DNA of 64,000 bases. It comes from Edaphobacter sp. Its GTDB lineage: Bacteria; Acidobacteriota; Terriglobia; Terriglobales; Acidobacteriaceae. The notes under the pieces were generated by a model. The model saw nothing but the letters and a program-made list of their open reading frames with translations, was not told the DNA's origin and did no database searches. The position numbers were made by a program, and so were the translations under genes. Shown piece by piece: positions 1 through 4,674 of the stretch. The stretch lies in contig DASRSR010000194.1 of the NCBI GenBank assembly GCA_035656355.1, forward strand, positions 2,691 through 66,690, in the 5' to 3' direction. The number at the start of each line of letters is the position of its first letter. The stretch's first letter is position 1.

Positions 1-479
1 CGGAAGCAGTAGAGAAAGACGGTGAGCGCGCCGATGTCCATGGCGTGGGTGCCCAGCCAGACGAGGTGGGAGTTGATGCGCATCAGCTCGTTGAATAGGA
101 CACGCAGCCATTGCGCCTTTTCGGGAATCTCCAGACCAATCAACTTTTCTACGGCGAGAGCGTAGGCCGTGTTGTTGGTCATCGGCGAAAGATAGTCGAT
201 GCGGTCGGTGAGAGGCACAACCTGCTGATAGAACTTGGCCTCGCAGGTCTTCTCGATTCCGGTGTGCAGATAGCCGATGTCGGGAGCGAGCGAGACAACG
301 GTTTCGCCATCAATCTCAATGACCAGCCGCAGAACGCCGTGCGTCGAAGGATGCTGCGGTCCCATGTTGAGAACCATGGTCTGGTCCTTTGGCGGGATCA
401 CATTCTGATGGCGTTCGGTATCGACGACAACGTCTTCAACACCAGGGTTCAACTGATCGGGAGCAGCAACGGGAGACAT
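1..479 (-). CDS. nuoD: NADH-quinone oxidoreductase subunit D (5' part; runs off window start)
   Basis: Hand translation from ATG at 479: MSPVAAPDQLN...TMVLNMGPQHPSTHGVLR (NuoD N-terminal motif). TAATG overlap with the nuoC stop. Confidence 0.95.
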   Translation of the reverse strand, partial: MSPVAAPDQLNPGVEDVVVDTERHQNVIPPKDQTMVLNMGPQHPSTHGVLRLVIEIDGETVVSLAPDIGYLHTGIEKTCEAKFYQQVVPLTDRIDYLSPMTNNTAYALAVEKLIGLEIPEKAQWLRVLFNELMRINSHLVWLGTHAMDIGALTVFLYCF

Positions 480-964
480 TAGCGGTAGCCCTCCACGGGG
501 TAGTCCTTGCGCAGTGGATGTCCCTGCCAGTCTTCGGGCATCATGATACGGCGCATGTTGGGGTGGCCGGTAAAGCGGACGCCGAAGAGATCGTAGACTT
601 CGCGCTCGTAGAAATTGGCGGAGGGCCAGATGCCAGTGACGCTGTTGACGACGGCATCGTCCTGATTGAGCCGCACGATGATCCGGACACGAGCCTTCAG
701 GGAGATGGACAGCATGTGATAGACGACCTGGAAGCGTGGCTCAGAGGGATACCAGTCCACGGCGGTGACATCTTCGAGGAAGGTGTAGCTGGCCTTTTTC
801 AGTGCTTCGCAGGCAGCGATGATGTTTTCGCGGGCGACGGTGATGGTGAGCTCGGAGTGCTCGAATCTGGCGTCGGTTGCAAGGGTGGAGAGCGCCTTGA
901 CCGCGGCGTTGTCCGGATGCGCTTCGAAGACGGCCTGGATGCCGGTCAGTTTGCTGGTATCCAT
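479..964 (-). CDS. nuoC: NADH-quinone oxidoreductase subunit C
   Basis: Motifs FLEDVTAVDW, WPSANFYEREVYDLFG, HPLRKDYP. Confidence 0.96.
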   Translation of the reverse strand: MDTSKLTGIQAVFEAHPDNAAVKALSTLATDARFEHSELTITVARENIIAACEALKKASYTFLEDVTAVDWYPSEPRFQVVYHMLSISLKARVRIIVRLNQDDAVVNSVTGIWPSANFYEREVYDLFGVRFTGHPNMRRIMMPEDWQGHPLRKDYPVEGYR

Positions 965-1372
965 TTAGAGGTCTCCCTTGTCGTGGGACCAGTCGAGGAT
1001 GCCCTTCTTCCAGACATAGAAGAGGCCGACGGCCACGAAGCCGAGATAGACCAGCATCTCGTAGAAGCCGAAGAGATGGGAACCGGTCAGCGCGGGCAGC
1101 TTGCGGAAGATGACTGCCCAGGGAAGCATGAAGACCACTTCGACATCGAAGAGGATGAAGAGCATGGCGACCATATAAAAGCGGACAGAGAAACGTCCGC
1201 GGGCGTCGCCGATGGGATCCATGCCGCACTCGTAGGCTCCGGCCTTAGTGCGGGAGTTTTTATGCTTGCCGAGGAAGTATGAGGCCCCAACCATGCCGCA
1301 GGCGAGCGCGAGGGCAAGCAGAATTTGGATTGCCAGGGGAAGATAATTCCATATGTATGGGTAACTTTGCAT
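965..1372 (-). CDS. nuoA: NADH-quinone oxidoreductase subunit A
   Basis: YECGMDP, FYMVAMLFILFDVEVVF, WKKGILDW; three TM helices. Start trimmed to the ATG of MQSYPY (inferred). Confidence 0.95.
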   Translation of the reverse strand: MQSYPYIWNYLPLAIQILLALALACGMVGASYFLGKHKNSRTKAGAYECGMDPIGDARGRFSVRFYMVAMLFILFDVEVVFMLPWAVIFRKLPALTGSHLFGFYEMLVYLGFVAVGLFYVWKKGILDWSHDKGDL

Positions 1373-1435
1373 GGCCATCTTCGACTCTAGAATTGCGACG
1401 GTCAAGTGTCAAGCAGTTGACGGTATTCGACCGCG

Positions 1436-2356
1436 CTAAAGCAAGGTTTTATAGGCATTAACGATACTTTCGCCATAGAGTGCTGCGATAAGCCCGGCAG
1501 CCGCAAGAAAGCTGCCGAAGGCGAGCTTTGAGGCAAGCCCGGCTTTGCTTCGCGCCAGTAGAACGGCGGCGTAGATGCTCGCGAAGAAAACGCCGAGGAA
1601 GAGAGCGAGAATCGCAGACCAGAATCCGAGGAAGCCGGCGATTAATGCCAGCAGCTTCACATCGCCCATCCCCATGCCTTCGTGGTGGCGCAGTTTTCGA
1701 TAAAGCCAGCGAACGAACAACAACAGAAGAACCACCGCGCAAACGGCAAGCAGCCAGTCGCCCAGGAGGCGCTCGGGGCCGGTGAGAAACACGTTTCCAT
1801 TTCCGCCCTTGCTGCCGACGCTGCTGAGCTGAATATGGTTATTGCCGAGGAGGACATCGTCCTCATTGGGGGCGAGAAAGATGGCCTGCAGGCAGGTAAG
1901 AAAGAACGAAATCGCAAGGCCAACGAGTGTGAAGGCGTCTGGCAACAGGTGCGTTTGCCAGTCCATGACTATCAGGCCAATCAGGAGAAAGCCAAAGATG
2001 GCGATTCCGACGTGGGCAATGACGTGCGATACCAGGTCGTGTGTATTTGGAGTGTAGATGAGGGTGTAGATCGCAGCGGCTTGTCCCATAAACCATAGCC
2101 CCAGGGCGATCTCGACGAGCGGATACTGCAGCGAGATGGTCTCGTGGCAACTGCGGCAGCGACCACGCAGCAAAAGCCAGCTCAACACAGGGATATTGTC
2201 GAACCAACGGATGCCGGATCCGCAACGCGGGCAGTATGACCTCGGATGAACGATGGACTGGTTTTGGGGCAGGCGGGCAATACAGACATTCAGAAAGCTG
2301 CCGAAGAGCAGACCAAGGACAAATCCAATGGTTTCGTACGCAACGAGTGGGGTCAC
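1436..2356 (-). CDS. pilD: Prepilin peptidase / N-methyltransferase (A24A)
   Basis: GSFLNVCIARLP, two CxxC pairs (CPRC, CRSC), catalytic D in IVMDW and GMGDVKL, LAFGSFL. Confidence 0.9.
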   Translation of the reverse strand: MTPLVAYETIGFVLGLLFGSFLNVCIARLPQNQSIVHPRSYCPRCGSGIRWFDNIPVLSWLLLRGRCRSCHETISLQYPLVEIALGLWFMGQAAAIYTLIYTPNTHDLVSHVIAHVGIAIFGFLLIGLIVMDWQTHLLPDAFTLVGLAISFFLTCLQAIFLAPNEDDVLLGNNHIQLSSVGSKGGNGNVFLTGPERLLGDWLLAVCAVVLLLLFVRWLYRKLRHHEGMGMGDVKLLALIAGFLGFWSAILALFLGVFFASIYAAVLLARSKAGLASKLAFGSFLAAAGLIAALYGESIVNAYKTLL

Positions 2357-2377
2357 ACCGAAAGTATACGGCTCGAG

Positions 2378-3838
2378 CTAAAAATCGATGTGCATCCGCA
2401 GTGCGGATACCAGTACGGGGCCACGGTCCTTGTTATAGCCGGGATGCGTGATGAACTGGGTATCGAGCGCATAGTAGAGGCCGCGCCATGTATGCAGGTT
2501 GTAATAGCCCTCAAGGATGTCCTCACGCGCGTAGTTCAGTCTCCCGTCGCCAAGCAGGAAGCCGAGGCCGCCGAGACGAAGATAGTTCTGGTGATCGCGC
2601 TTGATGGCATTGCTGACAAAGGCGAGACCGAATTTGTCGTTGGGGCGGGACCATTGTCTGCCGGAGTAGTCGCCGCCGAATTCAAAGGTCTGATCGACTT
2701 CGGTATAGGCAAAGGACTCATGCTGGCCTTCGTTCCAGCCAATGCGGGTGAAGAGGCGCAGATTTGATGTGACCTCCTGCTCTGCATTGAAGCCGAAGCC
2801 GTACTTTACAGCGCCGTACTTCTCGTGAAGCTTGATGTCGGGTGTCTTGTCCTGGCCGGAGAGGTAGGCGTTGACCGCATCGCGGTATCGACCCATGTGC
2901 GCGTGGTTGACAAAGCTGAGGACGCGGAACGTTCCTTTGCGGCCTGGCACCAGTGACCTGCGAAGTTCAACTTCCATGTTCTGGCTGCTCGCACGGCTGA
3001 GGTTCCAGTCGAGATCCGGGCCATTGGCGATCTTTGGCATCAACGCAAGGCCGTAGCGGGCAGACCAATTTTTATCGTCGTACTCCGCCGTGGCGGCATA
3101 CGTGTAGCCGCGTGTGTCGGCAGCGTAGTCCCAGGCGCCGTTGTTATCGACTGTCCAGTTGAGAAACTGAAGGTGACTGTCACTACCTATGCTGTTGATG
3201 TCGAAGAAGTCAGGCAGGCTCATCTTGCCGAGGCGAAACTCCAGCCTCTTTTCGGGAACCTTCGTTGCCAGGGAATATGGAGTCCGGTCGGCATCCACAA
3301 GCGTATGGCTGAGGCCGATGGTCTGATGCAATTGAACGCGGGCAATATAAGGTGCCGGCCCGAGACTGGGGTCGCGAACAACGTCCAGATTGGTGAAACC
3401 GGCAAGTCCGAGTGCCTCGCTGTCGCCACGCCCACCGGAAGATTCAACATCCAAAAGGACATCGGTATTGCTCTCGGGATTCGCTCGGAGCTGTGCGCCG
3501 AGGTAGAGGGTTCCGAGCAGAGAGGTTTTGTATTCTCCGTGGCCAAGAAAGCTGTTGGGACCTTCATAGGGCGAGTGGAAAGGGCCATGGCCCTGAAAGA
3601 TGATGTTTGCCTGGCCGGAGATCAGGTAGCGCGCGCTATCTGGGTGAGGGAAGAAGGTGGGCGCACTTTCAGGTGCGGGTGTGCCATCCCGCTGAGGAGC
3701 ACCACCGCCTGTAAATTGCTGGGCAGTAGCTGTTACAGCGAAGAGAAGCGACCCGGCCAGCAGAAATTTCGAGATAAAGTTCAGCGGCATCAAGACTATA
3801 TATTCTGGCTTGCCGATGAATGGAGTGCGAATCGTCAT
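2378..3838 (-). CDS. Outer-membrane porin, OprB carbohydrate-porin / MnoP-like
   Basis: Signal peptide; FHSPYEGPNSF, GLAGFTN, WDYAADTRGYT motifs; C-terminal HIDF. Start may be 3790. Confidence 0.8.
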   Translation of the reverse strand: MTIRTPFIGKPEYIVLMPLNFISKFLLAGSLLFAVTATAQQFTGGGAPQRDGTPAPESAPTFFPHPDSARYLISGQANIIFQGHGPFHSPYEGPNSFLGHGEYKTSLLGTLYLGAQLRANPESNTDVLLDVESSGGRGDSEALGLAGFTNLDVVRDPSLGPAPYIARVQLHQTIGLSHTLVDADRTPYSLATKVPEKRLEFRLGKMSLPDFFDINSIGSDSHLQFLNWTVDNNGAWDYAADTRGYTYAATAEYDDKNWSARYGLALMPKIANGPDLDWNLSRASSQNMEVELRRSLVPGRKGTFRVLSFVNHAHMGRYRDAVNAYLSGQDKTPDIKLHEKYGAVKYGFGFNAEQEVTSNLRLFTRIGWNEGQHESFAYTEVDQTFEFGGDYSGRQWSRPNDKFGLAFVSNAIKRDHQNYLRLGGLGFLLGDGRLNYAREDILEGYYNLHTWRGLYYALDTQFITHPGYNKDRGPVLVSALRMHIDF

Positions 3839-3857
3839 AGAGGTTATTGGTTAATAA

Positions 3858-3876
3858 TATACCCCCCTATGGTATA
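3858..3876. promoter_or_regulatory. RcnR/CsoR/FrmR-type operator
   Basis: TATACC-CCCCTAT-GGTATA: AT-rich inverted repeat (ATAC-N9-GTAT) around a C6 tract, in the 49-bp divergent gap. Confidence 0.8.
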
Positions 3877-3887
3877 AGAAGAATGAG

Positions 3888-4184
3888 ATGAAAGCGATAA
3901 ATAAAATTGAGATAAAAGAAATATCAAGAGAGCGTGCCAAGCTGCTGAATCGTGTGAAGCGCATCCGTGGACAGATGGATGCAGTGGAACGGACGTTGAA
4001 AGCAGAAGAGAGTTGCGCAGATGTACTGATGCTGCTGGCGGCCGCTCGCGGAGCGATTAATAGCCTGATGGCCGAGGTACTGGAGGACCATGTTCGTCTG
4101 CATCTGTTACAGGAGGGGCATGAACCGCTAAGCCCAGACCTGGGCGAAGAGCTAATCGATTTGGTCCGGGCTTATTTGAAGTAG
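3888..4184 (+). CDS. Metal-sensitive transcriptional repressor, RcnR/CsoR/FrmR family
   Basis: RVKRIRGQ, C-ADVLMLLAAARGAINSLM, EDH-VRLH, terminal YLK. Confidence 0.92.
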   Translation: MKAINKIEIKEISRERAKLLNRVKRIRGQMDAVERTLKAEESCADVLMLLAAARGAINSLMAEVLEDHVRLHLLQEGHEPLSPDLGEELIDLVRAYLK

Positions 4185-4245: not shown

Positions 4246-4427
4246 TTTACGGCATGGCTGACGAAAGTGCTGAAAAGTCTGTTCGGACTGAGGAGCGTAC
4301 TTCAGGGGCTAAAGCCCCATTGCAAACAGTCACTTCGGCATCCTTCGACTTTGCTCAGGACAGGCTTTAAAGCCGTGCCCTTAACAAATCTAGATTTTTC
4401 CGCACTCTTGAAGCCATGCCCTTAACG
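4246..4427. repeat. Nested REP/MITE composite (family A palindrome split by a TIR-bounded unit that holds further REP units)
   Basis: Outer TTTACGGCATGGCTGA...AAGCCATGCCCTTAAC; imperfect TIRs at 4264-4280 and 4392-4408; inner CAGGGGCTAAAGCCCC and CCTTCGACTTTGCTCAGGACAGGCT. Confidence 0.8.
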
Positions 4428-4452: not shown

Positions 4453-4674
4453 TTAGCGGGATTTGGCGCCTACGACGACCAGGCCGACGCCTGCGACCAG
4501 AACGACTGTGCTGAGGATCGGCGAGATGGGGAGTGTCTTCTTCTCCTGATGGGAGACCTGAAGCGGGCCGAGATCAACATCTTTCTTCTCGTGGGTAAAG
4601 CTGACGCCGCCCATGGCGAAACCGATAATTCCAAGGATAATGAGCAGAAATCCAATGATGGTTGCAGGCTTCAT
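4453..4674 (-). CDS. Small two-TM membrane protein (DUF3185-like)
   Basis: 73 aa; two hydrophobic helices flanking VDLGPLQV. Confidence 0.75.
   Translation of the reverse strand: MKPATIIGFLLIILGIIGFAMGGVSFTHEKKDVDLGPLQVSHQEKKTLPISPILSTVVLVAGVGLVVVGAKSR

Follow-up and report, generated by a model that had tools for sequence, protein, structure and literature searches.

The window, a stretch of 64,000 nucleotides of Edaphobacter sp., contains an OprB-family outer-membrane porin and a CsoR/RcnR-family repressor, which are divergently encoded on both sides of a single palindromic operator. The same pair is conserved among related Acidobacteriaceae. The families of the two proteins, their geometry, the conservation of the pair and the kinship of the repressor are established. 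Our preferred reading, which we consider fairly probable, is that one repressor acts through one operator on both the porin gene and its own gene, and that it is released by a metal. CsoR/RcnR-family regulators control inner-membrane exporters, chaperones and detoxifying enzymes. A porin would be an unusual target, as the earlier note remarked: Full-text searches have given no published account of this family acting on a porin or standing beside one, and none from Acidobacteria.

The two proteins and their operator

The porin is encoded on the minus strand, where its longest ORF (486 amino acids) covers positions 2378–3838, and the repressor on the plus strand, at 3888–4184. The ORFs are divergent, with a gap of 49 bp (3839–3887), just as the earlier note had described. 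The porin matches PF04966 with 102.2 bits (cut-off 22.9, E 5.3e-29), which upholds its assignment to the OprB family. As expected for this family, it also has a signal peptide after Met17 and, at the C-terminus (...RMHIDF), an aromatic residue. Translation probably starts at the Met at 3790. This start is the likelier one because the predicted Sec signal peptide MPLNFISKFLLAGSLLFAVTATAQQ comes directly after this Met, and because a start codon matching 3838 is missing in several relatives. The non-coding gap would then have 97 bp.

Porin homologues in Edaphobacter and Granulicella are 70–89% identical. JGI records name homologues 'high affinity Mn2+ porin', and these KO-derived names are the sole support for the label 'MnoP-like'. 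A PDB sequence search with the porin gave no match. Its AlphaFold2 model has a mean pLDDT of 45, and the approximately 17 strands which it predicts are unreliable.

The repressor has 98 amino acids and matches PF02583 (DUF156) with 73.5 bits (cut-off 22.8, E 1.8e-20). Its NCBIfam scores are 79.6 bits for FrmR (cut-off 133), 53.3 for RcnR (cut-off 138) and 27.5 for RicR, all of them far under the equivalog cut-offs. Among solved structures, 5LBM (E. coli FrmR, E 5.7e-18) and 5LCY (Salmonella FrmR E64H, E 5.1e-15) come nearest, with InrS and the CsoRs ranking well behind. This protein thus belongs to the RcnR/FrmR branch, as an equivalog of neither according to the NCBIfam cut-offs. The earlier assignment to the CsoR/RcnR family is correct.

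In the W-X-Y-Z ligand scheme proposed for this family (PMC11672702), the repressor reads x-Cys43-His68-His72. C-H-H is invariant in the 79 distinct relatives, and the residue aligned to RcnR His3 is His in 42 of the 79 (53%) and Glu in 14. Most relatives have 90–91 amino acids and many begin with MSH, as RcnR does. The window repressor has eight extra N-terminal residues, an ATA codon in place of the ATG of its relatives, and Glu11 at the RcnR His3 position. Cys at X, His at Y and a G/C-tract operator with AT-rich inverted repeats, all of them characteristic of the CsoR/RcnR family, are present. The H-C-H-H fingerprint of RcnR and DmeR, with His3 by a free N-terminus, is absent; without His3 and with an N-terminal extension, this protein is unlikely to use its N-terminal amine for coordination as RcnR does. 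The FrmR features (Pro2, which in FrmR makes a methylene bridge to Cys35, and the equivalog score) are also missing, and the x-C-H-C fingerprint of Cu(I)-CsoR is not found, position Z being His72.

The palindrome TATACC-CCCCTAT-GGTATA, noticed previously in the gap, is confirmed at 3858–3876 (TATACCCCCCTATGGTATA; each arm has 6 bp and the spacer 7 bp). With up to three mismatches allowed, the 64 kb contain this 19-mer a single time, and none of 100 shuffles contains it. The whole operator block TAATATACCCCCCTATGGTATA (3855–3876, no strand assigned) is unique in the window and recurs in all related loci for which upstream sequence is available. The core dyad of the block is 3859–3875, where the family consensus is ATACCC-N5-GGGTAT; the window version TAATATACCCCCCTATGGTAT has one arm mismatch, and the porin-side extension is TAAT in the window and TAGT in the family. 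In the 80-locus genome set described below, the consensus is found in every locus with upstream sequence, mostly with 0–1 mismatch, and in most loci it lies 10–46 nt ahead of the repressor start. When the loci are aligned on the site, TAGTATACCCCnnTAGGGTAT is the only conserved intergenic block, with an information content of about zero on either side. Neither a looser consensus search of the window nor a scan of 745 kb of related loci gave a second copy.

The DmeR operator of S. meliloti has been published with the core TACCCCCCTATG.TAT (PMC6044271), which is common to the window operator. A scan of metagenome contigs (27–73% GC) finds the motif adjoining CsoR genes across many phyla, and the form GTATACCCC-NN-TAGGGTAT adjoins C-H-C CsoR genes with CopZ or multicopper oxidase. 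From its sequence and its conservation, 3858–3876 is certainly to be predicted as a CsoR/RcnR-family operator, in agreement with what had been suggested for this palindrome. The motif is generic for CsoR-family operators, so we have rejected the metagenome scan as a definition of a regulon. The sequence type of the operator does not tell the effector.

On each strand the operator block overlaps a −10-like hexamer: TAATAT, pointing rightward to the repressor, and TATATT, pointing leftward to the porin. Four bases outside the dyad there is a near-invariant T, which suits a rightward −10 (TAGTAT, here TAATAT) better than a leftward one. This T-A-n-n-A-T pattern directly suggests autoregulation only, and autoregulation appears to be the better-supported half of the shared-control model. 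A promoter scan of the region gave no sigma-70 consensus promoter. A terminator scan gave no terminator-like site between operator and porin, which makes read-through from an operator-proximal promoter possible.

Conservation of the pair among Acidobacteriaceae

A scan of the genome collection based on the repressor gave 80 loci, essentially all from Acidobacteriaceae (Edaphobacter, Granulicella, Tunturiibacter, Bryocella). A porin is found divergently upstream of the repressor in 78 of them, all 78 with the operator, so the pair passes the synteny check that had been proposed beforehand. One of the two exceptions has no upstream sequence. The other is L078; among the genome loci with sufficient upstream sequence, it alone gave no porin. 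L078 has an ORF of more than 800 amino acids at the porin's place (2–2401, minus strand), and it keeps the operator and a small ORF which is described below. Among metagenome loci with enough flank and a repressor at least 59% identical, the porin is present in all.

The porin itself is variable. Three OprB subtypes, 29–32% identical and all matching PF04966, are found opposite orthologous repressors. In the repressor tree, subtype B and C loci are nested among subtype A loci, which indicates that the porin has been exchanged several times and the pairing has been kept. In L131 the operator and the porin persist, and the repressor gene has been replaced by repeats.

The neighborhood nuoA-pilD-porin-repressor-thiG is syntenic across Acidobacteriaceae, and for this reason the adjacency of the pair alone is weak evidence. 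The pair persists at every locus without the pilD/nuoA or thiG flanks. In the window, its neighbors code for a prepilin peptidase, a 73 amino acid membrane protein, ThiG and an MFS sugar transporter. No RcnA/CopA-like exporter is found among the flanking genes, as was already noticed, and no Ni/Co exporter (RcnA/NicO or CDF DmeF) within about 4 kb of the pair. No frmA, sulfur-detoxification genes, copA or copZ are found near it. In L004 an RND operon lies 670 bp downstream of the repressor; we have considered it as a target and rejected it, as it has no operator.

Two other features of this neighborhood may be described. The 73 amino acid protein (4453–4674, minus strand) has two predicted helices and a weak match to DUF4383; its gene is convergent with the repressor and is kept at the same place in 47 of 84 related loci. 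A short hairpin-rich repeat is found at 4296–4388, with the core TTAAGGGCACGGCTTTAAAGCC on the minus strand. It has a single copy in the window, about three times the local depth in both a DNA run and an RNA run, and many loose ends. The operator of L131 has similar repeats on its flanks, and this is probably a dispersed acidobacterial repeat family.

Control of the porin and the inducing signal

A second conserved element, ATTCGCACTCCATTCA, is found at the 5' end of the porin (3817–3832, minus strand). It is present in 59 loci with up to four mismatches, with the family consensus TTYGCAYYCYATTCA and at a constant distance from the signal-peptide ATG. It is trailed at a fixed distance by GAAnAT (GAATAT in the window), about 10 nt ahead of the ATG at 3790; there is no Shine-Dalgarno sequence ahead of this ATG. 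The element is conserved at wobble positions and its reading frame differs between locus types. Neither a consensus RNA fold nor an Rfam match was found for it; we have also searched the 5' regions for a riboswitch or a known RNA and have found nothing. The element may combine an activator site with a weak −10, as a promoter belonging to the porin itself, whose mRNA would be nearly leaderless. The porin gene may thus have a second, independent promoter. This 5' regulatory cassette is retained across the three porin subtypes, and in loci of the long type about 300 bp separate it from the operator. The consensus TTYGCAYYCYATTCA resembles a direct repeat with an 11-bp period, TTCGCA-N5-TTCAYN, of the type bound by OmpR/PhoB-type regulators. 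A related sequence, TTCGCAC, is found in long-type loci just ahead of the Shine-Dalgarno sequence of the small ORF.

This small ORF (about 82–100 amino acids) lies in the interval between operator and porin in about half of the relatives (L019–L024, L031–L034, L038, L040–L045, L051–L052, L059, L062, L066, L071, L074–L082, L084) and is absent from the window. It has a strong Shine-Dalgarno sequence, GAAAGGAG, and codes for the motif [RK][WFY]VET[AG]DERCP[LI]A[CG][VIT]W...DDEP..RPAF, with no family matched in Pfam or NCBIfam. In some loci it stops ahead of the porin, in others it is fused in frame with it, giving ORFs of 551–575 amino acids which JGI annotates as long 'Mn2+ porins'. The geometry of L074–L081 is informative: In these loci the first ORF on the porin side is the small one, its ATG is only 48–52 nt away from the operator, and the sole −10-like hexamer shared in that stretch is TATACT/TATAGT, overlapping the operator. 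The equivalent hexamer in the window is TATATT.

The operator might serve the repressor promoter only, in which case the porin would be under its own activator-dependent promoter (TTYGCAYYCYATTCA plus GAAnAT), the two genes would be adjacent by inherited synteny, and the real targets, for example an exporter, would lie elsewhere in the genome. We regard this alternative as rather unlikely, both for the control of the porin and for the position of the targets. It is suggested by the T-A-n-n-A-T conservation, which suits a rightward −10, by the synteny of the whole neighborhood across the family, and by the separate 5' element of the porin, with its fixed distance to the ATG and no Shine-Dalgarno sequence, which in long-type loci is some 300 bp away from the operator. 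Nevertheless, it would be unusual for a regulator to be kept with one local site but without a target nearby, and no second operator is found in the 745 kb of loci or in the window. The porin subtypes have been swapped at least three times, yet the pairing and the 5' cassette have been kept. Moreover, the small ORF of L074–L081 has no room for a promoter which does not overlap the operator, and in L131 the operator and the porin have outlasted the repressor gene. The pair, the site, the porin swaps, the geometry of L074–L081 and the orphan operator of L131 lead us to favor shared control of porin and repressor.

As for the signal, a sister clade of 92 amino acid proteins, with H-C-H-H and about 66–69% identical to the porin-linked clade, gives some indications. 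Its neighbors include CzcB-CzcA-type RND pumps (L206–L208), HupE/UreJ transporters (L204, L211) and a gene of the NicO family, which includes RcnA (L213). A linked Ni/Co exporter gene is seen only in this sister clade, not by the porin-linked repressor. Together with the C-H-H set, these neighbors make Ni/Co the most likely ancestral signal. Two more loci with CsoR-family genes may be mentioned here. L166 has two of them in tandem (146–412 and 568–849, minus strand); the N-terminal two thirds of the first belong to the porin-linked clade and its C-terminus to the sister clade (AEELIEVVRSYLK), and it may be a recombinant or an assembly chimera. In L096 (1266–3529, minus strand) the repressor is 44% identical, and its stop overlaps the start of a 662 amino acid membrane protein, probably a P-type ATPase.

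Two other proposals concern the effector. The divergon could be the same but respond to Cu(I) or to a broader set of metals instead of Ni/Co, with x-C-H-H acting as in Thermus thermophilus CsoR, which carries C-H-H. Such a response is possible in view of the variable N-terminus (the N-terminal His varies within the clade), of the generic operator, whose form GTATACCCC-NN-TAGGGTAT is found beside genuine C-H-C CsoR genes with CopZ or multicopper oxidase, and of the His at position Z, which may loosen selectivity (PMC11672702). It seems quite unlikely to us, since the repressor is much nearer, both in its NCBIfam scores and in the PDB ranking, to FrmR and RcnR (79.6 and 53.3 bits) than to RicR (27.5) or CsoR, and since the genes accompanying the sister clade are NicO/RcnA-like, HupE/UreJ and CzcBA rather than copA/copZ. 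A non-metal effector, an aldehyde or a reactive sulfur species sensed through Cys43 as in FrmR or CstR, appears very improbable. FrmR is in fact the top match in both NCBIfam and PDB, and a few relatives start with Met-Pro, but Pro2 is absent in the window and in most relatives, the second Cys needed by CstR is missing, and there are no frmA or sulfur-detoxification genes near the window pair. Furthermore, His at position Z is the very change which makes FrmR metal-responsive (PMC11672702).

In the shared-control reading, the metal-free tetrameric repressor would bind the dyad 3859–3875, and so cover the rightward −10 of its own gene (TAATAT) with its probable start site, and also the leftward −10 (TATATT) heading the porin transcription unit. 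As the dyad overlaps both −10 boxes, both genes would be held down. Binding of a divalent metal at Cys43, His68 and His72 would release the DNA and raise both porin and repressor. The inducing metal would most probably be Ni(II) and/or Co(II), which are favored by the ligand set and by the neighbors of the sister clade. During metal stress the porin would then alter the flow of cations through the outer membrane; candidate benefits of having more porin are the venting of exported metal from the periplasm or the entry of a competitor such as Mn2+. Geometry and comparative evidence are the grounds on which we infer that the porin is repressed and metal-induced; the effector of the repressor and the useful direction of flux are likewise inferred. 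The metatranscriptome covering the region contains only low-depth contigs of related strains, with no usable 5' ends. Porins usually fall under metal stress (PMC4182526), so a porin raised by excess metal would be unusual, if true.

Comparison with known systems

The closest parallels are RcnR-RcnA/RcnB of E. coli and DmeR-DmeF of rhizobia. Their regulators belong to the same fold family and have Cys/His/His at X, Y and Z, as the window repressor has. They are autoregulated through a C/G-tract operator with AT-rich inverted repeats over the −10, an arrangement which the window appears to share, and E. coli RcnR is also divergent from its target. On the other hand, their partner is an inner-membrane exporter, whereas here it is an outer-membrane OprB-family porin. 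The His3/amine ligand of RcnR is missing in the window repressor, and His3 is present in only 53% of its clade. The rcnR-rcnA pair has two operators and the window only one, whose repressor scores under the NCBIfam RcnR equivalog cut-off.

FrmR has the highest sequence similarity to the repressor, including the common RVRRIRGQ...LVRAYLK, and the latter has a natural His at the position changed in the metal-responsive FrmR variant E64H. It differs from FrmR in lacking Pro2 and a frmA partner, and in its score below the equivalog cut-off. The Cu(I) regulators CsoR and RicR share the operator type ATACCC-N5-GGGTAT, but they have Cys at Z where the window has His; similarity to RicR is only 27.5 bits, and copA/copZ are not nearby.

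Regarding the porin, the OprB family includes channels for inorganic cations, such as Bradyrhizobium MnoP and cyanobacterial OprB-like porins, which are in the same Pfam family as the window porin. Mn limitation induces MnoP, whose regulator is Mur of the Fur family, whereas the window porin adjoins a regulator from a family which derepresses when its effector is abundant.

To our knowledge, the passage of exported metal through the outer membrane, and its tuning by cells, have been largely unaddressed. The Acidobacteriaceae might have a dedicated, metal-derepressed vent in this membrane: A rise in cytoplasmic Ni/Co, or in another divalent metal, would open an OprB-type channel, letting out metal already pumped into the periplasm or admitting a protective competitor such as Mn2+, and the small protein would participate in many relatives. 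We advance this idea tentatively, as a possibility that is more doubtful than not. If true, it would add an outer-membrane step to the metal-resistance circuits of the CsoR/RcnR family. Natural x-C-H-H variants, differing in their N-termini, are also available in this clade for work on how effector selectivity is set in the CsoR/RcnR family. A family-wide pairing of sensor and porin, kept through repeated swaps of porin subtypes, would point to regulated outer-membrane cation permeability in these abundant acid-soil bacteria.
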